DNA of 47,739 nt, taken from NCBI GenBank assembly GCA_003427395.1, contig BFEA01000030.1, positions 2,639,299 through 2,687,037 on the forward strand, written 5' to 3'. This stretch comes from Chara braunii. Its lineage: Eukaryota; Plantae; Charophyceae. Made by a program: the position numbers and the translations under genes. The notes under the pieces were generated by a model, which was not told where the DNA came from, did not search any database, and was given only the letters and a program-made list of their open reading frames with translations. This document shows, piece by piece, positions 5,568-46,705 of this stretch. Positions within the stretch are counted from its first letter, which is position 1, and each line of letters begins with the position of its first letter.

Positions 5568-5617
<50 letters not shown>

Positions 5618-6692: not shown

Positions 6693-6706
6693 TGTGCTTC
6701 AAGGCT

Positions 6707-21456: not shown

Positions 21457-23070
21457 CTATCCCCGTCTTCGTCTCCTCATCCTCTTCTCACGCCTTTCTC
21501 TCTTCCGCTTTCTCTCTCCTCTCTCACGTTTGAGTCTCAAAGCTCTTCTCGATGCATTTCTTCTTTCTTCCAATCTCCGTTTTTCCAACCGGTCGGCATT
21601 CTCGTCATCTTCTCTCGACCGTTTCTTCTTTCTAGGGGTCTTTCGTGGGGCAGGTTTCCGAACCTTATATCCTTTCCTCGGTGGTCGAGAAGAAGCTCCT
21701 TGTCTGGAGGTCTCCCCTTTCTCGTGGGTTACGGTCACCTCTTTGTTAATAGCCTTTTTCCCTTTCTGCTTCGGCTTCTTCCCAAGGGTCCCTCTTGATC
21801 GGAAGATCTTGAGACAAACCCCCGCGATAGGGTCCCGTAGCCTACTCCCATCTAATTCCGCGAGCATGTAAGCCCCGCCATCCAATCTCTTTAGGACCTT
21901 ATAAGGTCCCATCCAACGATTTGCTAGCTTACGGCTCCAGGTTTTTTCCAGTGATGAATCGTACATTAGCACTAGGTCGTCCACCCCTATCGGCGCCTTT
22001 CTGACCCGCAGATTTTTGTCCCACCTATCTTTCCCTTTCACCCTCTCTCTCTCGATGTTCTCACTGGCCGCGGTCACCCTGGTATCCAAATTCTCTGCTA
22101 TTTGCTGTATCCGTGCTTCCAACAGTTCATCCCTAGACATGTTGGTTTTCCACGAGACACTCGTCCAAGTGTCAATGTGGAATTCGACGGGTAAGGGACA
22201 ATGTATGCCGAACCAAAGAGTGTATGGAGGGTACCCTGTACTGGACTTGACCGTGATATTATCGACCCAAACCGCGTACCGCAAGTACCTTAGCCACTGC
22301 TCCGCGCGCCCTTTGCACAATTTTGCTAGAGCATCCACAAGCGTTTGGTGCCCCCTTTCTACCGGTGCATTGCTTTGGGGGTGATAAGCGGTCGTATAGG
22401 CCGCCCCGATTCCTGCCTTTTCTAATAATATCTTGACCTTCTGGCTCAAGAATTCCCCCCCGCTATCCATGACTATTTTTTCGACACACCCATACCGTGC
22501 GATGTACTCAAGGAGAAAATCGCTTACCTCCTCTGCCGTCTTCTTCTTAATGGCTTTCGCTTCTACGAACCCGGTGAGGTCATCCCGGGCGTTGATTATA
22601 TACCGAAGTCCACCGACCCCTCTTGGCATGGTTACCAAGTCTACGTGGACCTTCTCACCCAGAACCGTGGGAAGCGATGGAACTAAGGGTTCTTTGTACC
22701 GGACTGTCGCCCTCTTCTGGCAGGCTTCGCACGTCGAACAGTACTTTTCTACTTCCGTATATTGTCCGTCCCACCAATAAAGCCTACGGACCTTATCGGA
22801 AGTACCCTTTACCCCCCTATGGCCTCCAACGACCCCGTTGTGGAGTTCCTCTATGACAACCCTTCTCTCCTCCGGATCGCATAGTACCCTCATGGGTATC
22901 GCAAACTTGGTGGGTCTCTTGAAGAGATGGCCTCTTCGTAGGCAGTAGCCCAACACCTCTCGTTGGATTCTATCGGTCCCTGTATCTCTACCGGCTAAGT
23001 ACAGTCCTATGTCTCCGTATTTCCCGTCGTAGAGATTAGCGAGAAAAGTTCTTGGGCCCCCTTCTTCCCC
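21457..23070 (-). pseudogene. pol: Integrase domain of pol
   Basis: H..GGH..CSTCEAC zinc motif, VHVDLV / IVMDSGGEF / PQSNAPVERGH DDE core and WMGPYKV GPY/F motif, then a basic tail with no chromodomain. It is in frame with RT-RH across a TGA at 23071. Confidence 0.95.
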
Positions 23071-24870
23071 TCAGCTGTTCCCCGCTATTTGTGCCCTATT
23101 AACGGCGACTTTCATTATCTCCTCTTTAACCATTGTCACTTCTTCCTCCTTAAGCCTAGGTAGGTCCTCCTCACGAATGGGAAGCCGGGACAATCCGTCC
23201 GCGACCTGGTTCTTGGTCCCTGATATCCTTTCGACCCTATAGTCGTAAAGCCTAATGTGTATCATCCATCGGGCGATGGCCGGATCGATCAGCGAGAAAT
23301 CCTTTTGAAGGACCGCCGCTATTGCAGTTTGGTCTACCCTCAGGAGAAATCGTCGCCCGTATAAGTAATGTCCGAAGGCCTTTAGACAGTGCAACACCCC
23401 TAACACCTCCTTTTTGAATTGGCTATAATTTCTCTCGGCGGGGTTCAATATCCGGCTCTCGAATCGCAACGGTCTCTGTTTCCCCTCTCCGTCCTTTTGA
23501 GACAAAAGGCCCCCCACCGAGTGAGGTCCCGCGTCCGTGGATACTATAAGCGGGCGACTCTCTTCGTCTTCGAAGAACGGAACTCCTAGGATCTCTCCAC
23601 CTTCGCGGAACTCCCCCTTCAAAGCTTCCATGGCCTCGTCCTGTGCTCCCCCCCAAACCCATCCTTCCGATTTCCTAAGGAGTCTTCTAAGGGGTTCCGC
23701 TTTCTCTCCATAGGCTTTTATGAAGATTCTCCAGTAGCCCACAACCCCCAGAAACTGCCGAACTTCCGTTATGGACTTGAGCGGTGACGGCCAGGTCATC
23801 AATTTTACTAATTTTTCGGGGTCGGGCCTTCGCCCATCCTTATCGCAAATGAACCCCAGTATCTTGATGGAGGACACGCCCCAATGACTCTTAGTTCCGC
23901 TTACCGTGAGGTTGGCATCATCTAACTTTTCAAGGACGTTTCTGACATCACTCATGCGGTCGGCCACAAATTTTCTCACCCCTGGGAAGACCTCCGTCTC
24001 ATCTCGTTCGACCGACCCTTTTATCGGGAAGTCATCCAGGAAGACCTCCACCTTCTCTGGTATGAACTTCTTGAGGACCGCGATCATGGCCCTGTGGAAC
24101 ACTGCCACTTCGTTAGTCCATCCCATGGGCACCACCATCATTTGGACCAGCCCTAGAGGCGTATGCATGGCGGTCATATGCCTATCGCGATAGTCTAAGG
24201 GGATTTCATCATACCCCGAGTAGAGATCACAGATCGAGTATATCGAACGACCTGCCGACCGTTCCGCGAGTAGGTCTGCCTCCGGTATCGACCCCACGTC
24301 CCTTATAGTGACCGCGTTGGTCCTTTGGAGGTTTTGTATCCATCTTAGTTTGTTGCTGCCCCCTTTTCTCAAAAAGAACCACTAATTGGAGTAAGCACTC
24401 TCACAAGGCTTTGCGACGAATGTTCTGATCTTCTCCTTGATAAAAGCCACTATCTCCTCCTTCTCCTTTTGAGCGTACTTCCACTGGGGCCTATCCTTCC
24501 AAGGTACGTGTGGGACGGTGTGTATCCGGGCCGGCTTAGCGTACCTCGGGTCGATCCTTCCTCTCTCCGAGTCATCAAAGGCAATGGCTTTATCGCAGCC
24601 CCTTTAGGTCATGGTTATGAATCCCTTCTCTTCCTCCGTGAGATTCCCATCCCCTATATCCATCTTGGCCAACCTATCGGCCGTTATCCTTTGCCCTTCA
24701 GTCTCTTTCCTTTTCCGGATGATATCGACTATCTCCTCCTCCGATATTGTAGCTTCCCCCGTTCTATCCCGGCTGACCGCGGCGGGTTTTACTTTCTCCG
24801 CCACGGTTTTGTGCTTCTTAACTCCGCCGGTTAGGGGGATACCTCCACAAAAGATATACTTACGCATCCA
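23071..24870 (-). pseudogene. pol: Reverse transcriptase and RNase H of pol
   Basis: DLYSGY, PMGWTN, VFLDDFPIKG, VRQFLGVVGYWR, IVSTDAG, ERNYSQ..E, NQVADGLSR. There are stops and a frameshift upstream of 24372. Confidence 0.96.
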
Positions 24871-24965
24871 CCGAATTCCTCCTCCTCGTCCGCCTTCTCG
24901 TACCCCATACCGTTAATAACAATTCTATCCCCTACATCCTCGACCTCCAATTGATCTCCCTTGGG

Positions 24966-25696
24966 TCACCTATCCGTCAATGGCACCTCCTCCAGACGGA
25001 CTCGGCACACCCTCGACTGACTCCCCTTGCGTTTAGCAATGCTGGTCCGGTTACGCTCATCTTGCGCGTCTACGGTCTTTAGGACCACTCGGATTCCATC
25101 CGGACTTTGGATCGAGAGAGTCTGACTTCCATCTGGTAAATCAACCGTGGTAGCGTGAACCGCGCTCAGCCAGGTCCTTCCGAGGATCAACTCGGAGAAG
25201 CACTCCTTTACCGAAAAGATTGGGACCGTGGCCTCTACGCCAGAGACCTCAATCACGGGGCTTTGACACATCCCTTCCGCCGGTTGCAGCTTGTTATTGA
25301 CCACTACCATTGACATTGATACCCTTCGATCTATCTCCAAGTCCAGCTCCCGCGCGATGGAGTCCCTACAAACCGTAGACTCGGACCCGTTGTCTACTAG
25401 AGCTCTCATCTTCTTCCCACTTACCACTGCCAGGAGCTGGCCGCTACCTAACACATAGAATTTCTTGGTCTCTTCTCCCAAGAAGAAGTTGGAAGGTAGT
25501 TCCTCCATGGTAATGCGGGAGGCCTGTACTTCTTCCTTGGCTGGACCTTCCACCGGCACAGTGGGTCCTCCTGCGAGCGGGACTCTTACCTTCCTCGTGA
25601 TGCTTTGGAGCTCTTCCTTGGCGCTTTTGCTCGCGGCTAGATATTCCAAAAGTGTTCACTGCATAGGCTGCATCAGGGTTCTTCTAAGGGGGGCTA
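24966..25696 (-). pseudogene. Gag-protease linker and aspartic protease
   Basis: ALVDNGSES active-site motif and ELILGRTWL. Confidence 0.9.
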
Positions 25697-25704
25697 CCGT
25701 GTCT

Positions 25705-26718: not shown

Positions 26719-26749
<31 letters not shown>

Positions 26750-26750
26750 T

Positions 26751-26781
<31 letters not shown>

Positions 26782-27103
26782 TAATCAATCAATCAATCGA
26801 TCAATCAAAAAAAAAAAATCAATCCATCAATCAATCAAATTTGTCTTTTCTAATTTTTTTTTTTTTTTAACATATCAAAAATCACCCCCCCCGAAATTTT
26901 TGATTTTTTTTTTTTTTTGCCGTAGGCCTGCAGCGGTCGACGTGCGCAGGCCAACCGCGCGCGCAGATGTCGAGGGCGCGCGCCCGCCTGCGCGTGGCAC
27001 AGCCGCGCGCGGACTCGGCCGAGCGACCTCGGCCGCGGGCCTGCGGCCTAGGATCCTGGCCGCGGACTCCGATCCTGCGGCCGCGGCCTAGGGTTTCACG
27101 TAG
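25705..27103. mobile_element. Non-autonomous TIR DNA transposon with 8-bp TSD, inserted in gag
   Basis: TSD ccgtgtct at 25697-25704 and 27104-27111. TIRs ctatgtgacaccc / gggtttcacgtag match 11/13. Subtermini are rich in gcggcc, and the AT-rich core has (TG)n and (TCAA)n around an N-gap. Removing it restores LDEIDTVAPLRRTLMQ. Confidence 0.9.
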
Positions 27104-29531
27104 CCGTGTCTATCTCATCTAGGGTGCATTTCATTTCGAACTTTTTGAGCCCCCTTTTCTTAGGCGATTTGGGTGATGTGGGCTCTTCCTTCTTCTCCTC
27201 TACTGCTTTGGCATTGGCCATTGGTTGGTCGTTGTCACCGTTCCTTACCCCCGTACCCTCCGTCACGCTTTCTTGACTCTCGGACGTCTTGGCCCCGACC
27301 TGCGTTCTCACCCTTAGGCAAGGCCTCTCTTCCTCGGGCTGGGTCTCTATGAACTTGATGCTTGACACCTGGGGTTCCCTAATGGACACCCCCCCGGATG
27401 ACTCCGTCATTTGGATATGGGATGTGTTGGAGGAGCTCCCCATTTCTGGTTTCTTCCCCAGCCTAGCCTCCTGGAGGGCCATCCTCTTGTCCACGTTTAC
27501 CTTCATTGATGGGTAAAAGGAGACCACCTCTCCGCTATCTCCCCACACAACCCACTTGTTGTCATTCAGCTTGACCACCCCCAACCTTAAAGCCTCCGTG
27601 AGATAAGGGCAGTCCCTTTTGATGTGATTTTCTTCATTGCAGTAGACACACCCGCTCCGAGCTTGCAGGTTGTTGGGACGCGGACCCCCTTGCGTCGTCG
27701 CTGCTGTAGGCGCAGGAGGAGCCGGTGGCGGTGGCGCTGGTGGTGGTGGCGCCCTAACCTCAGCCCGTGGCCCATAAGTCCTTGCTTGAGGGGTGTCTCC
27801 CCACCTTCCATCGCAAGCATCCTTCCAATGGGAATTCCCCCAATCGGAACCACGATTCCCCCCTATCTCCCGGTAGTTCCTCCTGCCTCCTTGGCCACTT
27901 GATTCGTTCCTCCATCTGGTAGGCCGTTTGCCCCACCGGGGACCAGGTGGACCCGAGGGCGGTCTATCGCTCCCTCTTGGACCATCGTTCCGCGTGCCCC
28001 GCATGTTGCGGAGTGCCATGTCCAAGGTCTCGTTCATGTACTCCCTCACATCCACTCCTCCCTCTGTGAAAACTACCTCGGCGACTTTCTCGAAATTGGT
28101 AGAATCCCTCGGGGCCTTTTCAAGGACCTCTTTCCTCTTTTCCTCGGGTAGGTGCAGCATGAACATTACGCACCTATCCACTTCAGACAACATCCCCAGG
28201 CTTGGGACAGGCCACCAAGCTCTCCCGTTCCCCCCTTGTAATTCAACGCAAACCCTCCACGGTAGGGATCAGATCATCACAGGCGAAAGTCCGCTGAAGG
28301 TCCTCCACCGCCCATCTGCGGGGTAGATAGCCCGGATTGCTGGGGTCTAACTCGGGGTCCGAGGCTGGATGAAATAGTCAATCCACTCCCTTTCGGAGAA
28401 TCTCTTCCGGTAAGCATAGCTTTCTCATTTCTCTACGAATTCCGTTATGTCACTTCCGTCGAAAAAAAGTGCCTCCAGACCCAGGTTGACGTCGTAGTAG
28501 GGAACTCGTCTGTCGTCGTATCGACGAAAATAGGGTCCTTCCATTGGCCCATCGATCGTCGGGTCGTATGGCTTGTACCACGAGGGATCCGACTCCTGTA
28601 CCCGTGCCTGGGGTCTTGGCGGCCCCCAGGGGTCTTCCCCGTAGCGGCCCCGCTCATTCGGCCAATCCGTCTCCCACCGAGCGTGGTCCTGCCCCCTAAA
28701 GCCTCTCCAGGCTTCCACCCCCTGACTTTTGCCCGTTATCTCGCCGGAAGCCCACGCACCATCTGATTCTCTTTCGACACACCTTCGTGGCCTACTACTA
28801 CCAGCCTCCGCTGGCCTCTCGTCCCTAAGGTCCCCTCTACTCGGTCCTCCTTCTTCCCTCCTGGGTGGTCTGTACCCTACCCTATCTCTTGGAAACTCTA
28901 GAGCCTCTCCCATCCTTGCGTCCGGTAAATCCGCCCACCGAGACTCCATAGGAAGGCCCCTCGAGCCTTCAACCGCCCTTTCTCTCGCCGGCATTCGCAT
29001 TTCCGTGGCAACTCTTTGTCCTACTAAAGCCTGCCTCTCACCCGTGACGGCCTCCGAGATCCTTTCGACCCATCTCCGTGGCCTGCCGCCGGCCTCTGCC
29101 GACCTCCCTTCTCTTAAGTCCCTCCTGTCCTGACACTCCTCTTCCTCCCTCCTAAGTGGTCGATACCCCTGTCTATCTCTAGGAAATTCCCGCGCTTCCT
29201 CTATCCTTGCTTCCGCGTCCATTAGGTCCGCCCACCGGGATTCCACCGGAACGCCTCTTGCGGCTTCGGTGACCCCTTCGTTTACCGGCACCCGCGGCCC
29301 TAGATCCCTGTGCACTTGCACTTCCGTGCCAGCTCTTTGCCCCTCCAAGGCCTGTCTTTCTCCCGAAGCCATTTCCGGACCCCCCTCGGCCATATCTAGC
29401 GTTTCTGTTCCTTCCGTCATTTCTTCCACCACCCTACTTAGCCTAGCTCCCAACTCGGGGCTCTTCACTAACCCCCTTCTTTCGGCGGTTTCCGGCGGAC
29501 TAGAGAGACCAACCTCTACTTCACTCTCCAT
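27104..29531 (-). pseudogene. gag: gag (disrupted)
   Basis: LFFDGSDITEFVEK capsid-like start and zinc knuckle CVYCNEENHIKRDC. Stops and a frameshift lie at ~28195-28425. The long N-terminal extension contains a ~100-aa duplication. Confidence 0.88.
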
Positions 29532-29550
29532 GCAACCCTATTGGCAATTT

Positions 29551-30441
29551 TTAGTCACTTCCCTCAGTGCCCTCACTATCGTCTGCGTTATCTCCCGGCT
29601 CGTCCCCCTCACTATTGCCCGTGCTATCTTCCGAGTCCTCTTCCTCCTCCGATCCCCCCTTCTCTTCACTAGAATCCTCGTTAGCACTCCCTTCTTCCGA
29701 TTCCTCGCTGGTCACAGTCCACCAAGAATCTCTCAGTTTTTTCTCCTCGCTAGCGGCCAATGCAAGATTCGCGATCTCTAGGTCCGAGATGCCCCTAATC
29801 CCTTCTTGCGCACACCTCCTAATCAAATCCCTGTCCACATCACCTGCTTGTCCGGAGAACAGGGGCTTGATGACCTCCCCTACGCTCGCCCACCACTCGA
29901 AGTCGGTGTCCTCTCTCGATTCCCAGCACTGGGTGAATAATTCGTGCCCCCCTTCTTCTCCTAAAGGAAATTTCTTTATTACCTGCCCCGTAAGTCGAAC
30001 CTTCCTTACAGTCGCGTCGTCGACGTAGAGCAGGTAAGCCCAGGTTGAAATTTCCCAAGTTCTCCCGTGGGCGGCCCTCGGAACTTCTGATCTCTTTCCG
30101 TATTCCACTCTATCGACTACGCGCCCCTCGCCGCCTCTTAACCTCCTCACTCGGTCCAGGGCCTCGCGGGCAATGCCCAGAGGGTCCTTTCCTTCTGCTA
30201 ATTCAGTCGCAAAGATTAATCGGTTATCGGGGGACAAAAAAATCTTTGCTTTCCTAGTGCAGTTGTCCCCCTCAGATGCCACTGAGAACCTGACCACTGT
30301 CTCTTGCCCGTAGATTTCGAAGAACTCAGTAGTCACCACTCCTTCCCCTCTAACCCTAGGGAGGGTTACTCCATACTTCTCTCCCGTCTTCCAACCCCTA
30401 TCAAAGGTACCGTAAGGGTCCCCCCTGTCGTATCTAATCAT
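29551..30441 (-). CDS. Accessory ORF G, 296 aa, family II, acidic tail, intact
   Basis: Open ATG-to-TAA frame. It aligns with ORF F (TGEKYGVTLPRVR/TGEVVSVTLPRAR; VRFSVASEG/IRFAVSREG; KIFLSPD/RIFLSKE). Confidence 0.75.
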   Translation of the reverse strand: MIRYDRGDPYGTFDRGWKTGEKYGVTLPRVRGEGVVTTEFFEIYGQETVVRFSVASEGDNCTRKAKIFLSPDNRLIFATELAEGKDPLGIAREALDRVRRLRGGEGRVVDRVEYGKRSEVPRAAHGRTWEISTWAYLLYVDDATVRKVRLTGQVIKKFPLGEEGGHELFTQCWESREDTDFEWWASVGEVIKPLFSGQAGDVDRDLIRRCAQEGIRGISDLEIANLALAASEEKKLRDSWWTVTSEESEEGSANEDSSEEKGGSEEEEDSEDSTGNSEGDEPGDNADDSEGTEGSD

Positions 30442-30448
30442 AGGAGCC

Positions 30449-30925
30449 TCACCTCACGCCTTCCAACCTTGCGGCGGCCTCGACCAACGAGTCCTCGCAC
30501 TTAGCACGACCGGTCTCTTCGTCCCCTCGCAGAGTTTGGCGCAAAGCCTCCTCGTACTCTCCCGTTCTATCCCAAAATCGGGTCTCCACAAGGTATGTCC
30601 TAAACGTCAGCGGCGTTCCTAGATACCTAGATTCCTCCTCGAATCTTCTTTCTACTTCCAACAAAGGCTCCCTCCAAGCCCTCGAGAAACTTATGCCACC
30701 CGCGTCTCTAATGTGGACTGAAAAGGTAGCTAGCGTGGTCCAGCTCCTTCTTTTCTACAAGGCCAGCCGTCGGACCTCCACTAGAAATTCCGTCTCGGCG
30801 CGGACCACTCGGTCCTCCCCCAATTCCGGGTTAAGCTCCACACTCCCCTCGACCCTAACTTCGCTACCGTCCTCGTAGGTCTCCAATTCCCAACGAATCC
30901 TATTGGAGACGAACGAAGCTCTCAT
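30449..30925 (-). pseudogene. Accessory ORF H2, ~158 aa, one internal stop
   Basis: ATG at 30925 (MRASFVSNRIRWELETYEDG...) is in frame with ORF 30449-30664. It ends 7 nt before the ATG of ORF G. Confidence 0.55.
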
Positions 30926-30929
30926 CCCC

Positions 30930-31117
30930 TCACCTCGCGAGAAGATCTATCGTTACCTCGTCGAGGATAGCGATGGCCCTGTCTCAAGTAGCTTGATCCT
31001 AGCTAAGGACCCAGGCCTAGCCCTCCTTTCTTCCTCCCAGCACAGAGCGAGGATCCGGTGAACTTCTTCTCTTACTCTCCCCAATCCCTCAAGCTGCTCA
31101 AGGTCTGGCTCGGTCAT
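30930..31117 (-). pseudogene. Small accessory ORF H1, ~62 aa, one frameshift
   Basis: MTEPDLEQLEGLGRVREEVHRILALCWEEE.../DRAIAILDEVTIDLLAR*. It overlaps the stop of ORF F and ends 4 nt before H2. Confidence 0.4.
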
Positions 31118-31856
31118 CACCTAACTTCCGTCGTCGACACACAATTGCTATCCAAATCAAATCTGAGGGGTCCAATCCCGATAGCTCCCCCTCGCAGATC
31201 TTACCCAAGTACCTCCACGATATCGTAGACTCCCTAGCTTGTCGACCCCACCCTTCGAAGGCGTAACCCAGGTCCTCTAGAGTCAACCAATCGTCTCTAT
31301 AGGGATCCCGAAAACACCAGGCCAACAAAGTATGGAGGTCCGACCCTGTGAACCGAAACTGGCTCAGGATGGAAATCCTTCTCTCTACCGCCCTCTTAAC
31401 AGCCTCTGAGGGGTAGATTCTTTCAAAAATGAAACAGGGAACTCCCACCGGCTCACTGGAAGCGAACCGCGGTATCTCTTCCCAACCCTCGTAGGTCACT
31501 CGATATTCCTCGTCGCACCGTTCGCGAGGTCTTAACTTCTTTACTAATTCTCCTAGTCGGCCTCTCACGACTCGAGCGTCCCAGAGAGGGTCCTACCTAG
31601 TCCGTAAGCTACGTGCTATCTCAACAAGGCCTTCCTTCGAAAGGAATATTCGGGGGTCTCCAACTATGACCCTCCCCTCGCGACTCACCGCAAATCGTAT
31701 GAAAGCCTTACCGCGCCGGATCTCCCCTTCTTCTCGCAGGTGAGTCCTAGTTGGCTCAGTCAATCTGGCCCTAGGCAGAGTGACACTGACAACCTCCCCG
31801 GTATCCTCTACGGGTTTTATGGACGCCCAGAGAGTTATCGGTATCCCCTTTATCAT
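31098..31856 (-). pseudogene. Accessory ORF F, ~252 aa, family II, one internal stop
   Basis: ORFs 31593-31856 and 31098-31568 are in one frame. Its ATG overlaps the stop of ORF E as ATGA at 31853-31856. Confidence 0.7.
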
Positions 31857-32953
31857 CTGCCCTCGAAACCCCGTCGGTTAGCCACCTGCTCTTCTCCGAA
31901 GAGGCGGGCGTACGGAACGTCTGTGATGAGCGATCGGAGTCCCTCAAACTCTCTCAGCCTCCCGAATATTGCGGACAACTCACTTGTCGGGGGAATCCCC
32001 GCGTCCACGCACCGAGTATAAAGCCAGAACAAACCCCTAGCCCGCACCCCGGATTCTTGAGCCGCTCTAAGCACTGCTACTACACTCTCTTATGGGTCTC
32101 TTAGGAACAAATTGGCCACGAACTGGGGTAGGTTAGCGTGGAGGACCCCAGATGGGCGAGGGACCTCTCCAGGCTCGGCGAAGGATACTAGTGACCACGA
32201 CTCAAAAGTTTCTTCTTCGTAGTCAACCAACACAAGGTTGTTCGCCAATAGCCTCGCAGATTCCCGGTACTCAAAATGTGTCAGTCGCCCGGTCACCAAA
32301 CCCCTCCAAACTTCGGTCCACCCCTCTTCGTTGAGAAAAATTGTAGCCCGAATCTCCAGGAAACGACCGAGGTCGGGTGGGCCTCCTCTTTCCACACCTT
32401 CCTTCCAAGTGAGTCTTCGAGCTCGAACCCAGACGTAGGCCCCTTCTCTGANNNNNNNNNNNNNNNNNNNNNNNNNNNNNNNNNNNNNNNNNNNNNNNNN
32501 NNNNNNNNNNNNNNNNNNNNNNNNNNNNNNNNNNNNNNNNNNNNNNNNNNNNNNNNNNNNNNNNNNNNNNNNNNNNNNNNNNNNNNNNNNNNNNNNNNNN
32601 NNNNNNNNNNNNNNNNNNNNNNNNNNNNNNNNNNNNNNNNNNNNNNNNNNNNNNNNNNNNNNNNNNNNNNNNNNNNNNNNNNNNNNNNNNNNNNNNNNNN
32701 NNNNNNNNNNNNNNNNNNNNNNNNNNNNNNNNNNNNNNNNNNNNNNNNNNNNNNNNNNNNNNNNNNNNNNNNNNNNNNNNNNNNNNNNNNNNNNNNNNNN
32801 NNNNNNNNNNNNNNNNNNNNNNNNNNCCACGCTCATCCAATAAGGGGTCACTCGAGGGTCTCCCGGAATCAAGACTTTACTCGCGTCACTGGCCTCTATC
32901 GATTCCACCGCTCCGTTCTCGTTGAGCACGAACCCGCTGTCTTGAAAACCCAC
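31853..32953 (-). pseudogene. Accessory ORF E, family II, with N-gap and one internal stop
   Basis: LEIRATIFLNEEGWTEVWRGLVTG ... GLFWLYTRCVDAGIPP. ORFs 32090-32953 and 31853-32074 are in frame. Confidence 0.65.
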
Positions 32954-33591
32954 TGATGGTATCTCTCCGGTGAAAGAGTGAAGGGTTTTTCTAGAGACCC
33001 CAATCTCCTAAAAACGCCCTAAAGCTTCCTGCGTGGAGGGACACCCCGATCGATGCAGTGTGTGTACAGTGTCCACAGGCCCTGGAAGGGTAACCCAGAC
33101 TCCTGCCCCTTTTCTAGAAGCTTTACTATCTTTCCTTTGTCAGTCCCTTCAAACAGGAAAGACGGCACTCTCACCGTTAACGGATAGCAAACCCTTGGAA
33201 GCTCTTTCTCTCCCGCGAACCTTTCCTTCTCTATAGCCACAAACGCAAATCGCTCCCGAACCCTATTTATCCATTCTTCTCTTATCTCCCTCGCTTCTCG
33301 TAACAACCTATCCAACCCACCCCCTTGTCCCAGGACCAGGGGCACAATGATCTTCGCCCAAGCCTCGGGGGCTACGAAGATAACAGCGGTCACCTTGAGA
33401 CACCTCTCACCCCCTCGGCCCTCTACCTCTTTTGACTCTATCCACACGAACTCTCTGCTCACGGTGGCCTTACCTCCTTCTATCCTTTCCTAGTCGGGAA
33501 CCTCCCTGTTACTAGGGATCAATCTAAGGGTCTCACCTCCTTCCATGGATGACTCGACAAAGCGTCCCTATTTTCCGTCGTGGAACACCAT
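32896..33591 (-). pseudogene. Accessory ORF D, ~231 aa, family II, three internal TAG stops
   Basis: ATG at 33591 (MVFHDG...), 4 nt after the stop of ORF C. LKVTAVIFVAPEAWAKIIVPLVLG ... GLWTLYTHCIDRGVPP. Confidence 0.65.
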
Positions 33592-33595
33592 TCAT

Positions 33596-34339
33596 TTAAA
33601 ACATTGTCTGAGGTACCCCGAAGATCCTCTGGTAGCCGTAATCTCGCGCACCCTCGCGATCCCGAGTTGACTCTCTAAAGATCCCCGCGTGAATCCTACA
33701 GACCTTGATCCCGTATGGTACCGGGTTATCCACGCAATAGGTATAGTACCAATGAAGCGACCTAACGGAGAGTTTCCACCCTCTCTCTCGCACTATGGAC
33801 CGCACAACCCTCTCGTACCGCTCCTCCTTCCCGCTCACGCTTCGAAAAACGAACGACGGGAAAATGGCTCTGATGCACCCTGTGGCGCGAGGGTACTCCT
33901 CGTCTCGTGCGCAGGTCACCCTTACCTCAACAGGTGGGCATTGTCTAAGGGGTTCCGCCTAAAAAATCTGCCTCAAAATCGGACCCGCTCGTGCCTCCCA
34001 ATGATCCGCACGATACCAACCCAGGACCAAGTGAGTGATGTAATCGACCCAGGCCTCCTTACTCAAATAGACAGTCCCTTCCGCACGGATCACTGTTCGC
34101 TTGGGTCTCTTCCCGTTCTGGGGCCTCTTTCGGGACCACCTATCCCCTTCCCAGGTTCCTACCGCGAAACGAGCCCAAAGAAAAACCCCTCGTTCGATCT
34201 CTAACCCCCTCTCGCGCCCGGTTAGATACCTCTCGGTGCGATGGTCTAAAGGGACGCTAAAACACTCCCTGTCTTTGCTTAAATCTGCTTTCTCGATCAG
34301 AACCCCTTCTTCTTCAGTACCCTCTATAATCATAACCAT
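33596..34339 (-). pseudogene. Accessory ORF C, ~247 aa, family II, one internal stop
   Basis: ORFs 33959-34339 and 33596-33919 are in frame. VIRAEGTVYLSKEAWVDYITHLVLG ... SLHWYYTYCVDNPVP. Confidence 0.7.
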
Positions 34340-34697
34340 CCTCTTGGACTATCTCTTCTATGATTTGAACTAGCGCTCTCCACCCGTCCAATCCGTCTAG
34401 GAAGGTTTCCGGAATAGTAGGGACAGGCCTACCCCCTCGTGAATACGTCCTACACCCCAACGAGTAGAAGTAGTTAATCTTGTAAGCCCCCAACAGTTGT
34501 CTCTCGAGCTGTGCGTGACCGACCGCTTCCTCCCAGCTATCCAAATATCCTGCCTCTCTATCAACACCCTCTTCCACGTACAAGGCTATGTCGAAGTGGC
34601 CGGTCCACCAGTAGAAGGTATAGCACCACATGTCTATCCCGCCTCGATCACCTACACTAATTCTTGCAGGTTCAAACTCCAAAGGCCTCAAGCTCAT
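34314..34697 (-). CDS. Accessory ORF B, ~127 aa, family I, intact
   Basis: MSLRPLEFEPARISV..DMWCYTFYWWTGHFDIALYVEEG..YFYSLG.RTYSRGGRP. Its ATG overlaps the stop of ORF A as ATGA at 34694-34697. Confidence 0.72.
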   Translation of the reverse strand: MSLRPLEFEPARISVGDRGGIDMWCYTFYWWTGHFDIALYVEEGVDREAGYLDSWEEAVGHAQLERQLLGAYKINYFYSLGCRTYSRGGRPVPTIPETFLDGLDGWRALVQIIEEIVQEDGYDYRGY

Positions 34698-35053
34698 GGA
34701 TTCGCCGCTTTCACCACTCGCTCCACAATCCCTACTAGCACTTTCCATTCATCCGACCCATCGAGATAAGCGTCCGGAATTACCGGCGCCGGGCGACCAC
34801 CTCTGGGGTAGGTTCGGTATCCTAGAGAGTAAAAATACTTGTACCCATAACCTCTCAATTCCTCCCTCGAACCGCGGGAGTGGCCTATCGCCTCTTCCCA
34901 CCCACGAAGGAAATCCTCTCCTTGGTTTTGCCCCTCCTCTACATAGATACCCACATCAAAGTCACCGGTCCATAGTCGAAAAGAGTAACACCACACATCA
35001 ACACTTTCGTACGTACACACGCTAATCCACTCCGGAACGGCTTCTTAGCTCAT
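34694..35053 (-). pseudogene. Accessory ORF A, ~119 aa, family I, stop at codon 3
   Basis: MS*EAVPEWISV..DVWCYSFRLWTGDFDVGIYVEEG..YFYSLG.RTYPRGGRP, an end-to-end paralogue of ORF B. Confidence 0.7.
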
Positions 35054-35557
35054 GCAATATAATAAAAGGAAGATTCTCCAAGTTTCTATTTCCTTTTGGC
35101 CACTCGAGAGACCATCTCTATCCCGCAAGGAGAAGAAGCCTGTGAGCTCAGAGGGATCAAATGGACCAGAGAAGGAACGCCGTCTCACTCGGCTACTTTC
35201 CTGTCCTCCCCCGCTGAGAGACTCCTCCCCACTCCCGGCCAAGAGACTAGCCGCGAACACAGGTTATCCCCGAGGAAGGGTGGCAACCCCCTCCCCGGAG
35301 TCGGACCGAAGTCACACACCCGGGTCCTATGTCCCCCACTGAACCGACCTCTAGTCCTAAGTTAGCTTATCCGGTACCACGCCTCTACTCGCCCCACCTC
35401 AAAGCGGAATTACCTGGGTCCCAGGACAGGATCCACCTATTTATCAGAAATCACTAGCCTATCTACTCCCTCCCCATTCTCCTCATCGTGAACTCTTCGC
35501 ACTTCGTTCCCTTCTTCCTTTTCCGCCACCCGCTGCCTCTTTTATCTCTTGGAATCA

Positions 35558-35650
35558 CTGGAATTTCAAATCGGGAAAACAGAAAAAGTGCGGTGGGAAA
35601 AGTGGAGCCTTAGGAAGAGTCTCTCAGGTCGAGTTGACAAGCATACGTAC
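35558..35650 (-). other. Putative spliceosomal intron (93 nt)
   Basis: Minus strand AAG|GTACGT ... ctttttctgttttccc..TTCCAG|. Confidence 0.55.
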
Positions 35651-35659
35651 CTTGTATCT

Positions 35660-35983
35660 TCAATATTCGTTGTCATAATCCCAGTAGTCCCCCAGATCCG
35701 AGTCCGAGAAATCGGCTAGACACCGGTCTACCCAGGATTCGGCCTCCGATCCCTCATCCAAGGGCCCCCAAGTACCCCCTTCTTCTCTAATGCCCTCGCT
35801 AATAAGGGTAGGTGCGTCTCTCTCTCCCCCTCGCCCTGGTACCCGTAACACCACTCTCCTCTCCCCCAAGTCCCGAACCGGTCCCGTTTGAGAGTCCTGC
35901 TCCCTTGCGGGAGTTGGTACCGTCGTCAGCCCTCGCGGGTCGAGAACCGAAGCCCCTAATCCCTCTCTAGGACCCCCTCTCAT
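35660..35983 (-). CDS. Accessory ORF 0b, 107 aa, acidic C-terminus
   Basis: ATG at 35983 overlaps the stop of ORF 0a as ATGA. GASVLDPRG resembles GALSIWDPRG in ORF 0a. Confidence 0.5.
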   Translation of the reverse strand: MRGGPREGLGASVLDPRGLTTVPTPAREQDSQTGPVRDLGERRVVLRVPGRGGERDAPTLISEGIREEGGTWGPLDEGSEAESWVDRCLADFSDSDLGDYWDYDNEY

Positions 35984-36198
35984 GCGGGACTTTGGGTAGG
36001 TGCGCTCCACAACCTGTGTGGATCAAGAATATTTGGCGACCCTCTCGGGTCCCAAATAGATAGCGCCCCCGGACCCTCTCGGCCCCTTCTCTCTTCTCTC
36101 CCCCTCTCCCTCTCTCTCTCTTCCTCGTGAGCAGACCCCCTCACACTATTTTCCCGGACTGTTCTTCTTCCCGCCCTTTCGTTGTTCTTCACCCTCAT
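35980..36198 (-). CDS. Accessory ORF 0a, 72 aa, Arg/Glu-rich
   Basis: First ATG after the intron acceptor at 36217. Its stop is coupled to ORF 0b. Confidence 0.4.
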   Translation of the reverse strand: MRVKNNERAGRRTVRENSVRGSAHEEERERERGREERRGREGPGALSIWDPRGSPNILDPHRLWSAPTQSPA

Positions 36199-36216
36199 TG
36201 AGCCCCCTCAGGCAAA

Positions 36217-36290
36217 CTGTGCACCCCCTTAATTTTTAAATTTTAAGAAATAAACAAGCGTGAAAACCAAGCACACAAAAAAAGACTGAC
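36217..36290 (-). other. Putative spliceosomal intron (74 nt) in the 5' leader
   Basis: Minus strand CAG|GTCAGT ... T-rich body ... GCACAG|, an AT-rich island within GC-rich sequence. Confidence 0.6.
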
Positions 36291-36630
36291 CTGTTTTATC
36301 CTTCGAAGGCCGAAAGTGGGAGCCGAGATCGCGAGCGGGCCGGGGCGGACCTGCAAAAGCCAAGGAGACGAGCCCAACACCCAAAGCCCCTCGCACCCGA
36401 CAAGCCCAACAACACCCCCCCCCCCAATAAAACCCTCGCCGATGCCGCTTGAGAAGAACCGTGATCACCGCGTAGAACCCGATGAAGACTACCCTGAAGC
36501 CGTGTGCCGAAGGACTCGATGCCGAAAAAAATTGCAGAATACCCTAGACTCTCCGTACCGCTACTTGTCACGCTGGTCCTCCCGTTACACCGGGTCCTTT
36601 GAATCGGCCGCGGCCACGGGAGAAATGCTC

Positions 36631-36649
36631 ATCCCCAGCAACGGCGCCA
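36631..36649 (-). promoter_or_regulatory. Primer binding site for tRNA-Asp
   Basis: Minus strand TGGCGCCGTTGCTGGGGAT, 3 nt from the LTR end. It complements the plant tRNA-Asp(GUC) 3' end (..ATCCCCGGCAACGGCGCCA, recalled) with one mismatch. Confidence 0.88.
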
Positions 36650-36652
36650 CTT

Positions 36653-36708
<56 letters not shown>

Positions 36709-39700
36709 CCCCCCCTCCCACGCTCCCTGTCTCGTAGGACCATCCGGGAATGCCAGCCGTCCGGAGGTCGATCGTGCGGCCCCGAGAAGGCCCTCGTCGG
36801 CTGCCAGGTCCCTACCCTTTGCCCGGTGGTCCCCGCGGACACCTCCTCCTCCTTCTTGCACCCCCCCCTTTTTCTTGCCTCTCACAGCCTGTGCTTCAGA
36901 CAAGCGTCCCTACGAAGACTTCAGGCGAAAGTTCAGGCGCGACCAGGATGGCAGCTATTGCCGAGCATGCCGTTCTCTTGCCGACCGATACACGTGTGAG
37001 CACGACCCATGTCGGAGCCTTAGAGCGATTTTTCGAAATCCGAGCCCTACCATGACCGTACCAGAAAGGGGATACTAAGAGAGGTCTATGAGAACGAGAA
37101 CACGAACGAGACCCTTGCTACGAGAACTCCGTCGCACCGAGCTCGGATGCGAGCCCGAGGCCGGAAAGCGGAGGGACACAAGTCCACAAAATCGACTGCT
37201 CAGTGGTGCCCAACTCGAAATCGATCCCGAACCAGGAGGGACAAGTGCTTGTCTCGACCGTTTTTTAAGGCGAGTCCCAAACCCCGTGAGTTTACGAGGG
37301 CTCGTAGACAGTTTCTTCAAGATCAATTGACAGACTTGGATCCGTGAGCGCGGGCACACGATGTGGCAGAGCTCACAGGCAAGCACAATCACAACAATCC
37401 CGTAGACAATCCCAAGCCCGAACGCAGCGGATTCGCTAGAGCTTCGGCACAAGATGTGCGGTTCCCTCCTTCGTGAGGATAATTCCGTGCTCGAGCGCAT
37501 TCAGTTCGCAATGGATCAGACAAAGAGCACACAGTACCATCCAGCACGATGACTCTCTCGAACCCACAAAATGTCTCGAGAACTCAAACGCGAGCTACCC
37601 AGCTTCGTCGAGCACCAAGGAGATACCGGACCCGAATACGACAGGTTTTCAGGAGTTCGGTCACGAGTCACCCAGTTCCGTCAAGCACTGAGACAATCCA
37701 GTCCGCGAGAGGTCAGAAAACGAGTCGCACTCTTTCGCAAGCAAAATATCGTTCTCACCAGTTAGCGAGACCTCAAACGCGGGTCATCCGCGTTAGCAAG
37801 CGCAAAGGCCTTTCTTCGTACTTGAATAAGCTCGCAAGAGCTTCCGACACAAGTCACTCCGTATTCGTCAAGCATAGAGACCCTCTTGTACCCACAGAAA
37901 TTAGTTAGAGCCCGGACATGAGTCACACCCCTTCGTCAAGCATCAAGGCATCCAAGTACCCGAATAAGTTCACAAGATTTCAGACAAGAGTCACTAATTT
38001 TTGTCAAACAAAAAGACATTCCCGCACTCGAATAAATTCATAAGAGCCCGGCACGAGCTGCTCAGATCCGAAGAAAAAAAAACTCGCGAGAACTCGGACG
38101 CCGGTCGCATGGTTTTGTCCTTCGTAAGGACAATTCCGTACTCGATCGCATTCCTTTCGCGATAGCTCAGGCCCTAGCCCCACAGCCCGGTCCAGCGCAA
38201 AGACTTTCTCGGACCCGCCCTAGATCTCACTGCAAGAGCTCTGAAGCAAGCTGCCCAGTTTCGTTGAGCACAAGTTCCGCCAAGCATACATTCGCGAGAG
38301 CTCAGAAACGAGTCACACAGGTTCGCAAGCAAAAGAACGAGTCACACCGCATTGCAAGCGAAAGAGCGAGTCCCACCGTCTAGCCAAGCAAAGGAACTAG
38401 TCACACCGTCTCGGTAAGCAAAGGAACGAGCTACATTGTTTCGCAAGCAGAAGAACGAGTCACGCTGTCTCGACATGCAAAAGAACGAGTCACACTGTCT
38501 CGGCAAGCAAAAGGACGAGCTACATTGTCTCGACAAGCAAAAGGACGAGCTACACCGTATCGCAAGCAAAGGAGCGAGTCACGCCGTCTGGACATGCAAA
38601 AGAATGGGTCTCGCCGTCTCGGAAAGCAGAAGGGCATATTCGCGCCGTATCGACGAGCACTAAGACATTCTTGTACTCGAATAAGCTCGCTAGAGCTCGG
38701 ACACGAGCCACACAATCCCTTCACGGTCAGAGGCGATCTCGAGCCTGTAGGGACGGATACGAGGCCGTGGCCGAGCTCTTAGGCAGGCCTTGCCTTGTAA
38801 GGTGACGCCGCAAATCTTTTTTTGTTCTGGATGAAAAAGGCGGGCTCGAAGCCGCAAGCTCTCAAAGACCGAACCAATCTCCCCCTGTGATTACCTCGTC
38901 ACTTCTTCTCCCTCCCCATCTCTTCCTCTCTCCCTCTCGGCGTGGTTGGAGACGAAGCTCGAATCGGTCGCTAATCCTTCCCCTGCGTTCCCCTGTCCTC
39001 TCCCTCTCGCCCCCTCTATCTCCTCCTTTCTCTCTCTCTCTCTCTCTCGACGGCTAGCGGTTTATAGTCGGAGCGAGGGCGGAACGCCGCTCCCTTGTTC
39101 TCTCCCCCCCCCCCCCTTGTGCCCTCGCGCACGTCCTTTCTCTTTCAGTGTCCGGCCCTTCTCCACGTGCAGTCGAGGGCAGAGACTCAGGCTACGACCT
39201 CGTGCTCCCTATCTCTCTCTCTCTCTCTCTCAGCGGCTAACGCTTCTCCGTGCGCTGTTGGAAACGAAGCCCAGTTTCGTTGCCAACTCCACTCACCTCT
39301 TCCCGCTCGGCGCCCTCCTCCGTCTCAGCCCGGCGCCGGACCTCTGCGTTCGTCACAAGTGTACGTAAAGGGAAAGTCCCCTTCGACGGGCGCAACAGCC
39401 TCTTCCTCGAGCGCCGACCGCCCGAGCATCTTCTCACGCGCCCCCCCCCTTTTCTCACCCCCTCTTCTTTATATAGTTTTTCAGCGCTCCTCCCGATCCT
39501 GTCGCCCCCTCTTCTCCTTCGGCTCTCACTTCTCCTTTCCCGCCGACTTTTTTGCCAAATTTTCATCTTTGTGGCCATCCTGCTTCAATCTCCCGCCCAC
39601 CTTTTCGGTNCGCGCACGTCCTTTCTCTTTCAGTGTCCGACCCTTCTCCACGTGCAGTCGAGGGCGGAGACTCAGGCTACGACCTCGTGCTCCCTATCTC

Positions 39701-42072
39701 TCTCTTTCTCTCTCAGCGGCTAACGCTTCTCCGTGCGCTGTTGGAAACGAAGCCCAGTTTCGTTGCCAACTCCACTCACCTCTCCCCGCTCGGCGCCCTC
39801 CTCCGTCTCAGCCCGGCGCCGGACCTCTGCGTTCGTCACAAGCGTACGTAAAGGGAAAGTCCCCTTCGACGGGCGCAACAGCCTCTTCCTCGAGCGCCGA
39901 CCGCCCGAGCATCTTATCACGCGCCCCCCCCCTTTTCTCACCCCCCTCTTCTTTATATAGTTTTTCAGCGCTCCTCCCGATCCTGTCGCCCCCTTCTTTT
40001 CCTTCGGCTCTCACTTCTCCTTTCCCGCCGACTTTTTTGCCAAATTTTCATCTTTGTGGCCATCCTGCTTCAATCTCCCGCCCACCTTTTCGGTTCTCTT
40101 TCCCTCTTTTTGAGGTTAGACTCCGCGGCTTNGTGATCTCACCTTCCTCTTCCTTGCCCAATCATCGCGATTCCTCCGCCGNCTGAGGATCCATCTCGGC
40201 CCTCGCACCTTNTTTCTTTCCATTTTTACCCGCCTCGTAGTGCTCTCCCGCCGCCGAACCCCGCNCNTTCGTCTCNCCTCTATTCNTGCTTGCTTTAATG
40301 CGTCCTCCTGTCCTTGGTGTCGCCGAAACCCGACTCTTCTCCGTTCGCCTTCCTATCTCTTCCTCCCGTTTGACAGCACCCTCCCACCCCAGGTGCTCGC
40401 GAATCCCAGGACCGCCCATTGGCCCTTCTTCCCAGCTTCCATCCGCCGTAGAGTGTCTGGACTTGGCCAGGTACCTGGGCTTTTGCGCTTAGTACATCCT
40501 TTCTGATCTTCACGACGGTTTTCAAGAACCGCCTTTTGGTGACCTCTTTTGATGACGGTTGCTCTTCCCTGTCCGACTTTTCCCCTGTCTCTCTAGTTAG
40601 CGGCAGTCTCGCCCGAATTCGAACCCCTCACCCCTTCTTCGGTCTGATTCACCTGCGCGGCCTTCTCGGCTTCCGGACATTCCCGGTCTTCAGTCAGTCG
40701 GGTATGTCGGCCGGTTAACACCCGGCCTACGTAGGCTACTTCGCGTGATTGCTTAAGAGTAGGCGGCCGAGCCCGAAACTTTTACCAATACTTCAGTTTC
40801 CCGCCTGATCGGCACCATCACTCCCTCGATGCTTTTACTCTCTCCCTTCCTCCAATCCCGCTTCCCACTCCTTTCGTCGACGGATCTATGGGTCCTGCCC
40901 CCCCCCCCCGAGTTGGCTGGTCTTTCCTGCCTAACAGTTTCCCCGCGCGGCCTGCCCCTCTTAAAAACGTTTTTGATCATGTCGGCTGGTGGAATCTTTT
41001 GCCACGGTGTCCGGCAGATGGCCGCAAGCGAGCGGTTTAGATCTTAGCCTTGTCCCAATGCCGGCGCCTGTCTTTGGATGAGGTCGTGCGCACGCTCTCA
41101 AAGGTCATCGCCCCGTGCCCCGGCTCAGCCCCAACCCCCCCCTTTTCCGCAAGTTGCCCACCTGCAGCGCAAAACCCCATCTCATCGATGCCGCCAGGAT
41201 CTGCTCGCCCCTTCCTTTCCCCAGTGGCAACCGGAGGTCACAATCCTGCAGCTGATCCTCCCTCTGACCCTCCTTCTCAGACGCGCACGACCTTCCTCAA
41301 GAAAGCAACTGTCGCGTCATTTGTCCCAATGCCAAGCCATCGTCTTGATGCCATCTAGTTTCAAGGCTGGCCATGACCTGCCCGGGACCCACGCCACCCG
41401 GAGATCATACTTCCACGTGCACCTCCCTCATATCCCCTCGCAACCGTCGTTCACAGTCAATGTTTGGCCCGGAACTGACTCCCCCATTGCATGGTCCTCC
41501 ATGTCTCCGGCCGAAGTTCAATCATCCTTTCTTGCCTCTTGGGAATGGCCCCGGAGAAAAACTCGTTTCTTCTGCCCGCACGACCTCGCTTTTGGGGCTG
41601 AGCGTCGGTGGCTTCTACTAGCGAATTGCATACGTATATGTGGTCCCCAGGGGACTCGTCCGCGGCCATCGGTTGCTCTTGCCCTGTGCAGCCTCCATTC
41701 GAACGTCACGACTTGCTGCAGAGCCCCAAAAGTCGGGTCGAGCGGGACCTGAGTAATTCGACGGGCGCCCGTGGTCAATCCGGAGCCTCCACAGGCCCGC
41801 CCCAAAGTCTGACAGCTACCCCCGAATCCTCGTGTATGGCGTCAAACCCTTGACTTCTGAGGATCCGCGCCAGCCAGCTTGCGACCATGGTACGTACTGC
41901 TATTCCTGCTCATCGAAGCGTTAGTACGAAGAACCGGATGCTCGAGGGCATCCATAAACATCATATCCAAATGCATGCATACATCAAAACCACGCAAAAT
42001 CAGAAAAAAGGGAAACATATGTTTCTTATTTCAAAGAGAACAAGCCCTCGGCTGGTAGGCAGCCGCCCGACA
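36653..42072 (-). repeat. 5' LTR (~5.4 kb, including a probable ~485-bp assembly duplication)
   Basis: Direct repeat of 16186-21124, reading TG...CA on the minus strand, next to the PBS. Confidence 0.93.
39467..39476 (-). promoter_or_regulatory. Candidate LTR TATA box (duplicated at 39951-39960)
   Basis: Minus strand CTATATAAAG, followed downstream by (GA)n tracts. The matching site in the 3' LTR is masked by Ns. Confidence 0.5.
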
Positions 42073-46702: not shown

Positions 46703-46705
46703 GTG

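Follow-up and report, generated by a model that had tools for sequence, protein, structure and literature searches.

Nine extra genes ahead of gag in a decayed giant Ty3/Gypsy element of Chara braunii, possibly read by leaky scanning

How would a retrotransposon express a row of extra genes packed end to end ahead of gag? The question is raised by a minus-strand element in 47,739 nucleotides of the charophyte alga Chara braunii (contig BFEA01000030.1, positions 2,639,299 to 2,687,037), the stretch analysed here and called the window, to which all coordinates refer. An earlier note on this DNA had described about eleven accessory ORFs tiling almost the whole interval from the primer-binding site to gag, and had proposed translational coupling at their ATGA junctions. 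The element is a Ty3/Gypsy LTR retrotransposon of 25.9 kb, present here as a decayed copy, with the following parts:

36653..42072, minus strand: 5' LTR, TG...CA ends
36632..36649, minus strand: primer-binding site, separated from the LTR by 3 nt, its 18 nt beginning with TGG
35054..36631, minus strand: leader, including two doubtful ORFs (0a, 0b)
27096..29531, minus strand: gag, with a zinc knuckle, broken in the present copy
21457..25700, minus strand: pol, with protease, RT, RNase H and integrase in Ty3/Gypsy order
16186..21124, minus strand: 3' LTR, placed by self-BLAST to the 5' LTR and inspection of its ends

Self-BLAST gives the LTR pair as 92.6% and 96.3% alike (5' versus 3'), and CCGT beside both outer LTR ends forms a 4-bp target-site duplication. 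The 5' LTR carries a 484-nt internal tandem duplication with two TATA boxes (39959, 39475), and the primer-binding site is presumably of the tRNA-Asp type. Membership of Ty3/Gypsy follows from the domain order GAG-PR-RT-RH-INT, and the best solved-structure match of the RT is Ty3 itself (E 9e-40). Placement within that group is less straightforward. The integrase ORF has no chromodomain match that would point to Chromovirus. The additional archaeal-type RNase H of Tat elements (Ogre, Retand, TatI-III) was not seen in the PR, RT and IN ORFs, scanned outside the broken stretch 24966-24381, or in the P0004 Pfam list; both hold RT-type RNase H only. Athila elements agree with the Chara element in its presumed tRNA-Asp primer type, but have a 5-bp target duplication, an extra ORF on the 3' side and PF03078; here the duplication is 4 bp, the extra ORFs lie 5' of gag and PF03078 is unmatched. 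Phygy elements share a 4-bp NCGN duplication, matched by CCGT (one insertion only), but at 7.7-10 kb, tRNA-Trp primed and without extra ORFs they differ from a 25.9-kb element with nine.

The ORFs ahead of gag, in transcriptional order, are:

36198-35980, minus strand: ORF 0a, doubtful, without frame bias
35983-35624, minus strand: ORF 0b, doubtful
34694..35053, minus strand: ORF A, 119 aa, a paralog of B without AUG depletion, one stop that other copies lack
34314..34697, minus strand: ORF B, an intact orphan of 127 aa sharing ~50% identity with A
33596..34339, minus strand: ORF C, a ~240-aa family member of 247 aa with one stop, the sole start in strong context
32896..33591, minus strand: ORF D, a ~240-aa family member of 231 aa, its three stops all missing from the other copies seen
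31853..32953, minus strand: ORF E, ~245 aa, one stop, crosses an N gap, ~240-aa family
31098..31856, minus strand: ORF F, a ~240-aa family member of 252 aa with one stop, nearest to G
30930..31117, minus strand: ORF H1, a singleton of ~62 aa with one frameshift, weakest among the nine
30449..30925, minus strand: ORF H2, 158 aa, one stop, singleton
29551..30441, minus strand: ORF G, an intact ~240-aa family member of 296 aa with an acidic tail

Nine same-strand ORFs, A to G, thus occupy 35053-29551 directly before gag. Reading them requires eight stop read-throughs and one frameshift in ~1,720 codons. Tiling scores 4.0 and 3.1 events per kb at two switch costs, where dinucleotide shuffles score 9.0 and 8.3; none of 100 shuffles was as low at either cost. 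Antisense controls were matched more often (42 and 24 of 100 shuffles for E-G, 7 and 1 for A-D). For A to G, then, the claim of nearly complete tiling stands, but it fails for the leader, which is at chance level as a whole (68 and 48 of 100 shuffles as low) and has no long ORF in the ~430 nt ahead of 0a or in the 570 nt from 0b to A. The ATGA letters shared by 0a and 0b (35983-35980) are present in the sequence. Because the tiling of this pair is borderline (2 of 100 shuffles at one switch cost, 22 at the other) and 0a lacks frame bias, the count comes to nine ORFs rather than about eleven; the single contig piece covering 0a/0b among those listed carries 10 gap letters per 29 mismatches.

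The spacing of the nine had been described accurately at eight of nine junctions, all within 26 nt: ATGA at A/B (34697-34694) and E/F (31856-31853), overlaps of 26 nt at B/C and 20 nt at F/H1, and gaps of 4 nt at C/D, 4 nt at H1/H2 (conditional on bridging the one H1 frameshift), 7 nt at H2/G and 19 nt at G/gag. The reported D/E overlap has no defined start, as E, whose start is placed near 32953, lacks an ATG in the present copy at the N-terminus that homology defines. A 375-N assembly gap (32452-32826), unmentioned in the earlier note and spanned by contigs with ~15 letters, also cuts through ORF E.

What these ORFs encode is less varied than their number suggests. Sequence comparison identifies C, D, E, F and G as diverged paralogs within a single orphan protein family of ~240 aa, A and B as a second paralog pair, and H1 and H2 as two singletons. 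Pairwise p values are 1e-16 for D-E, 7e-14 for C-E, 9e-10 for F-G and 8e-6 for C-F; a CDE profile scores F at 15.3 bits (shuffled maximum 2.7), and an FG profile scores C at 15.2 (shuffled 4.1) and D at 12.2 (4.4). Comparisons gave no link of H1, H2 or A/B to the C-G family. The "large accessory proteome" proposed earlier is mostly a tandem paralog array.

Homologs were sought widely. ORF B had no match among 1.84 billion representatives, and the matches to ORF G and to the C-G profiles (2, 2 and 6) were Chara braunii gene models alone, the two profile searches having scored the best ~8,000 candidates. The accessory ORFs had no significant match in Pfam, PHROGs or PDB sequence searches, viral contigs none to B or the RT, and Rfam none; the ESM Atlas returned nothing usable for G and only hypothetical clusters (0.79-0.80) for B. 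AlphaFold models are poor (pLDDT 43 for G, 37 for B), which makes the fold searches made with them uninformative (none at E<=0.001; best Z 5.5, rmsd 3.4 over 65 residues). The N-terminal beta-alpha motif may resemble PC4/Whirly, a likeness that does not appear among the fold matches listed. The proteins appear soluble and charged. Conceivably, as a guess, they act against host silencing or in particle function.

Contig pieces and gene models support placing these ORFs in a Ty3/Gypsy family of many copies, as opposed to a one-off insertion. Three Chara gene models join G to gag-pol of this family, seven other protein copies of G are found at 75-81%, and an open copy of H2 (80% identity) lies inside gene model CBR_g31555. 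Five of the eight premature stops are absent from other copies. Purifying selection acts on G and on the A/B pair. ORF G has a dN/dS of 0.13 against a second copy, L001 (one pair), comparable to 0.15 for gag, and A/B combine a dN of 0.44 with saturated synonymous sites. Between other paralogs, dN/dS for C/E and F/G is near saturation with wide intervals (0-0.76), and for D/E it is undefined. The G/gag gap of 19 nt is retained in L001, itself a broken copy, and contig pieces 13-16% diverged span A/B and H2/G ungapped. In the present copy all ORFs except B and G are broken, as is gag-pol, and the 28 top differences within ORFs fall 14/7/7 by codon position, as expected for changes private to a dead copy.

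A clue to expression is the scarcity of AUG from B to G. There ATG is the most depleted of the 64 trinucleotides (17 versus 51.1 expected, ratio 0.33; the next lowest is 0.70). Antisense CAT is not depleted (35 versus 27.4), nor is ATG elsewhere (gag 41 versus 31, pol 62 versus 60, LTR 66 versus 63), and normal frequency resumes at the gag start. With proteins and codon usage held fixed, out-of-frame ATGs number 7 against 31.1+-4.2 expected (p<=0.0005); the same null gives 43 against 49.2 in gag-pol (p=0.10). Internal Met is likewise rare, at 5/1597 in B-G versus 46/1960 in gag-pol (Fisher p=9e-8), and NAT stands before a G base 5 times versus 45 for NAC (p=3e-6; gag-pol p=1.0). Taken singly, C, E, F, H2 and G are depleted at p<=0.012 and D at 0.06, with B and H1 not individually significant. 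CpG retention does not explain the loss, since CpG o/e is 0.91 in both B-G and pol. The G cores of seven gene models, related copies and not independent, hold Met at 2/1539 versus 99/4523 elsewhere in the same models; the L001 copy of G has no Met at all and 7 out-of-frame ATGs against 9.6 expected (p=0.18).

The 11 out-of-frame ATGs that remain open uORFs averaging 5.7 codons versus ~17 (p=0.001; median test p=0.046, and p=0.17 for gag-pol). ORF A is not depleted (8 versus 5.6 expected), and of its eight out-of-frame ATGs seven open uORFs of 1-19 codons and one lies in the B frame. B to G are cleared of internal AUGs as ORFs upstream of the polyprotein are in RTBV, and A is not. The leader is AUG-poor (9 versus 14.5). 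A ribosome shunt of the RTBV/CaMV kind would call for a short uORF ahead of a large, stable leader hairpin; of three leader segments folded, all outside the LTR, one is less stable than 30 mononucleotide shuffles and two are ~2 SD more stable. By the general -3/+4 rule, whose consensus is not specific to Chara, the nine AUG starts (A-G and gag) comprise four weak, four moderate and one strong. Seven of the eight accessory starts are weak or moderate, C being the strong one, and six of the eight have A at +4 whether or not they overlap a stop.

Depletion in three frames along whole ORFs points to scanning through them. A polycistronic RNA likely carries the accessory ORFs. This decayed giant copy bears nine extra genes, seven of them tandem duplicates of two orphans, and it is somewhat more probable than not that B to G and probably gag were translated by leaky scanning on a shared RNA. 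The fuller version, in which nine genes of new protein families, born of tandem duplication, are read together with gag from a single RNA that is leakily scanned across ~5 kb, is offered more tentatively. Since A is not depleted, scanning from the cap all the way through A is improbable, and the model has to include a separate entry step: 43S subunits would come in at the A/B boundary or close to it, through splicing, a shunt, reinitiation after A's short uORFs or restart at the A/B AUGA. A fraction would initiate at each weak start while the remainder scan on, and the very short uORFs at leftover out-of-frame AUGs would permit reinitiation. The array probably grew by tandem duplication, each new gene being purged of AUGs so that those downstream stay translatable. 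The strong start of C counts against leaky scanning, as it should capture most scanning subunits.

That start, together with the normal AUG content of A, calls for entry points, which nested subgenomic mRNAs would supply. Here leader donors spliced in alternative ways, or scattered internal transcription starts, would yield many overlapping RNAs, each serving its first one to three ORFs and with gag on its own spliced mRNA, and AUG depletion would reflect short-range leaky scanning on each. Splice-like donors at 36290, 35650 and 35413, a good acceptor near 36350, the need for large quantities of Gag and the precedents of splicing in Ogre (PMC6317226) and CaMV (PMC5902531) favour this arrangement. 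Acceptors speak weakly against it: a strict scan of A-G finds three sites, none immediately ahead of an ATG start, and the best YAG before a start has at most 10/15 pyrimidines and is lacking for G, by a splice model not trained on Chara. This possibility is considered rather unlikely.

Another possibility, close to what the earlier note had in mind, is that ribosomes terminate and reinitiate at every junction in turn, either in a TURBS-like way or assisted by a TAV-like protein that the element encodes. The eight tight junctions, with AUGA at A/B and E/F, invite it, as does their persistence at G/gag, A/B and H2/G in the diverged copies, and an A/B restart could serve as the entry to B. Stop-restart coupling is nevertheless a poor fit: AUGA occurs at only two of nine junctions, and loss of AUG over entire ORFs in all frames is not predicted. 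TGGGA is the calicivirus reinitiation motif; it occurs within 100 nt upstream of 0/9 starts. A TAV homolog was not matched in Pfam or PDB sequence searches, the structure models being poor, and tight packing is also expected from genome-size pressure after duplication. This explanation is improbable.

Least of all is to be said for duplicated, largely dispensable cargo or a reading artefact with AUG scarcity as an accident of composition, which the broken state of every ORF save B and G, the failure of the searches made to find homologs outside Chara and the non-significant out-of-frame depletion in L001 might suggest, but which is very hard to credit given the tiling unmatched in 100 shuffles, selection on G like that on gag and on A/B, the five stops missing elsewhere, depletion limited to a single triplet, strand and region, and a gag-pol that is also broken.

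Several known systems share part of this picture. Ogre and TatII (non-chromoviruses) and Tekay (a chromovirus) are, like the Chara element, large, with ~5-kb LTRs and same-strand extra coding between PBS and gag; the consulted part of PMC6317226 gives frequencies of such eORF-5'F of 21% in Ogre, 23% in TatII and 33% in Tekay, at sizes up to 24.1 kb. The Chara element differs from them in its nine contiguous ORFs over 5.5 kb, five-member paralog array and three-frame AUG depletion, in extra ORFs without a Pfam match and in showing no extra RNase H. Plant LTR retrotransposons have one to a few extra ORFs, mostly 3' of pol, in the portions seen of PMC7264820 and PMC11728184. RTBV and badnaviruses share the layout of B to G, with closely joined, AUG-cleared accessory ORFs ahead of the core polyprotein, starts that are mostly suboptimal, and short uORFs that are tolerated (PMC5902531, in part). 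RTBV has two such ORFs over ~900 nt, whereas Chara has eight over ~5 kb in an integrase-bearing LTR element, and leaky scanning is experimentally shown in the former and deduced from sequence in the latter. With the N gap discounted, the scanning distance here would be ~5.1 kb with seven AUG starts ahead of gag, against 900 nt in RTBV. Bicistronic genes of green algae resemble the cassette in weak ORF1 contexts and AUG under-representation before ORF2, with leaky scanning in vivo (PMC11892635, in part), but are chlorophyte host genes with a pair of ORFs each, where the Chara cassette puts nine in a mobile element. The literature searched yielded no LTR retrotransposon combining polycistronic additional ORFs with leaky scanning and no description of this family, though the Chara genome paper or its supplements may cover it.

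A conserved, paralog-expanded cassette of nine genes alters the view of how complex retrotransposons get, and it supplies at least two orphan protein families under selection. Its layout parallels that of badnaviruses and tungroviruses in an integrating relative. If the scanning model is true, a charophyte alga harbours a complex retroelement lineage with pararetrovirus-style expression and a virus-like gene accordion, scanned over about five times the distance reported for RTBV. The AUG-cleared 5 kb makes a sharp, testable prediction of how far leaky scanning can reach in the green lineage, and the cassette is a natural template for expressing multiple genes off one RNA. Gene predictors label pieces of the accessory ORFs as host genes, and nine CBR_g models of the Chara annotation are such pieces.

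The accessory cassette (minus strand, 35053-29551) lies within a giant Ty3/Gypsy element, and its nine genes, ORFs A, B, C, D, E, F, H1, H2 and G, form a real and conserved array in this algal family. Self-comparison placed the LTRs as follows:

42072-36653, minus strand, 5' LTR
21124-16186, minus strand, 3' LTR

The pair aligns in two blocks of 92.6% and 96.3% identity (K2P 0.051 and 0.036; CpG sites account for roughly half of the transitions), both outer ends are bordered by CCGT, and an 18-nt PBS begins 3 nt past the 5' LTR. Pfam domains follow the Ty3/Gypsy order of zinc knuckle (a match below the Pfam cut-off), protease, RT, RNase H and integrase, and Ty3 was the top match for the RT among solved structures. 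No chromodomain was found in the integrase ORF, and no extra RNase H in the PR, RT and IN ORFs. The element has Ty3/Gypsy features, and it mixes a TSD like that of the Phygy clade with a putatively Athila-like PBS. Its length is 25.9 kb, counting a nested insert of about 1.3 kb and two N gaps. The insert (25790-27090), between gag and the protease region, is A+T-rich; it contains an ATCA microsatellite and a 470-N gap, has repeats rich in G+C at its ends, and looks like a nested non-autonomous element. The 5' LTR carries a 484-nt tandem duplication (39126-40094, 97.7%), so that a TATA box is present twice; the counterpart stretch of the 3' LTR is full of Ns.

The earlier note had described about 11 ORFs tiling almost the whole interval from PBS to gag. 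We count nine, of which H1 is the weakest. In a minimum-cost tiling test, A-D and E-G required 4.0 and 3.1 events per kb versus 9.0 and 8.3 in shuffles (pol, 1.4), and no shuffle of 100 was as low at either switch cost. The leader does no better than chance, and the doubtful ORFs 0a-0b within it reach 2/100 and 22/100 at the two switch costs. The antisense of A-D is also partly open (7/100 and 1/100), and openness opposite coding DNA is common. Codon odds trained on gag-pol rank the proposed frame first in every segment, by a slight margin for 0a and F. All told, the cassette ORFs are in all likelihood real. Eight junctions from A to gag, and the 0a/0b overlap, agree with those first read; for D/E no position can be assigned, since E lacks an N-terminal ATG. 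DNA contigs cross a 375-N gap (32452-32826) in about 15 letters, and the length of the gap is therefore probably an assembly placeholder.

All-against-all alignment with shuffles linked A with B (about 50%), and D-E, C-E, F-G, C-D and C-F (p 1e-16 to 8e-6). In reciprocal profile searches between CDE and FG, F, C and D score higher than any shuffle, but G and the tested part of E do not, and a tree with long branches separates CDE from FG with strong support. Neither alignment nor profile tests tied H1, H2 or A/B to the C-G family. Most of the accessory genes very probably make up a tandem paralog array. Sequence, profile and structure searches gave their proteins no known family, non-Chara homolog or reliable fold. 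An env-like nature for the group was rejected, a 19-residue hydropathy peak above 1 occurring in D alone (1.92).

Protein matches to the accessory ORFs comprise nine distinct hits, all Chara braunii gene models, which makes this alga the likely host. DNA contigs came from four runs of one sample, possibly the source of the window itself; each run gave 4,759-5,534 contigs over 29300-36640, mostly less than 95% alike, filling 29 of 30 bins (the empty one is the N gap). Among the 40 of 902 differences listed, the A stop and the D stop at 33021 are altered in essentially all covering depth, and at the H1 frameshift roughly half of the depth shows a one-base length difference. Gene model P0003 matches D 1-107 at 78% with both N-terminal D stops open, and P0002 matches H2 at 80% with its stop open. 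The expectation that premature stops would vanish in other copies is therefore borne out for five of eight, the C, E and F stops lying outside the comparison. Among the contig pieces listed, 14 of 32 are gap-free at 12-20% divergence, partly one copy recurring in different runs; some cross A/B, some H2/G. Several diverged pieces end alignment exactly at 30441 (the G start), 31853 (E/F) and 34698 (A/B), a hint that subfamilies differ in gene order or content.

G occurs at 75-81% identity in seven gene models; in P0004, P0008 and P0009 the predictor fuses it to RT, IN, gag or PR sequences 85-91% identical to the element's own. Purifying selection, predicted for every ORF as dN/dS below 1, was seen for G, at 0.13 against the second DNA copy, L001 (bootstrap 0.08-0.20), with mismatches of 33/36/104 by codon position. 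The gag N-terminus gave 0.15, and L001 retains the 19-nt G/gag gap. Between A and B, dN is 0.44 and synonymous sites are saturated. Two tiny uORFs in G, of 2 and 5 codons (window 30374 and 29840; L001 26 and 569), are both kept in L001 despite synonymous divergence of about 1. The gag N-terminal region holds a roughly 200-nt internal duplication (28771-29267, 70% alike), also present in P0003.

Across B-G, no trinucleotide falls as far below expectation as ATG (17 vs 51.1), a shortage confined to the sense strand and gone from the gag start onward. When proteins and codon usage are held constant, there are 7 out-of-frame ATGs against 31.1 expected (p<=0.0005), three of them being the next ORF's start. 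Internal Met is likewise scarce (5/1597 codons vs 46/1960 in gag-pol; 2/1539 in G cores of other copies). Since CpG decay would create ATGs, they were probably rarer still in the living element. Eleven out-of-frame ATGs persist in A-G, and the uORFs that they open are very short. By the general -3/+4 rule, the nine start contexts are four weak, four moderate and one strong. An A occupies +4 at 6/8 accessory AUG starts versus 32/102 gag-pol ATGs (binomial p about 0.014), so weak context may account for the ATGA motif as much as coupling does.

Internal AUGs are ignored by translating ribosomes, so their depletion along the full length of ORFs argues for scanning subunits that traverse the ORFs of B-G. 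On these sequence patterns we lean slightly toward leaky scanning as the main route. Against it stand A, which is not ATG-depleted (8 vs 5.6 expected), the strong start context at C, and a distance about fivefold that reported for the caulimovirid RTBV. In G of L001, out-of-frame ATG depletion is not significant (7 vs 9.6, p=0.18). It is quite possible that splicing or a shunt supplies several entry points, each followed by leaky scanning, a model that shades into one of nested subgenomic or spliced mRNAs with short-range leaky scanning on each; splice-like donors in the leader favor the latter. The pattern of AUG depletion agrees with that described for RTBV and badnaviruses (PMC5902531) and for green-algal bicistrons, where reinitiation can account for part of the depletion near stops (PMC11892635).

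In a plant survey, elements reach 24.1 kb, and a minority of those of the Ogre, TatII and Tekay groups carry extra ORFs on the 5' side (PMC6317226); several reviews describe extra ORFs as few and of unknown function (PMC7264820, PMC11728184, PMC13547354, PMC5408684). The layout had no earlier report in the literature searched, which was largely open-access, the Chara genome paper being outside its scope.

Elsewhere, the window holds LINE-type fragments within 5530-9219 (zf-RVT, plus strand, 5530-6387; RT, minus strand, 8083-9219). Units of 67 nt and 65 nt form tandem arrays at 45753-47739, the 65-nt array recurring inverted at the window end, and related short hairpin-like, MITE-like repeats of about 150-180 nt lie at 2700-3017, 11174-11359 and 12267-12452.
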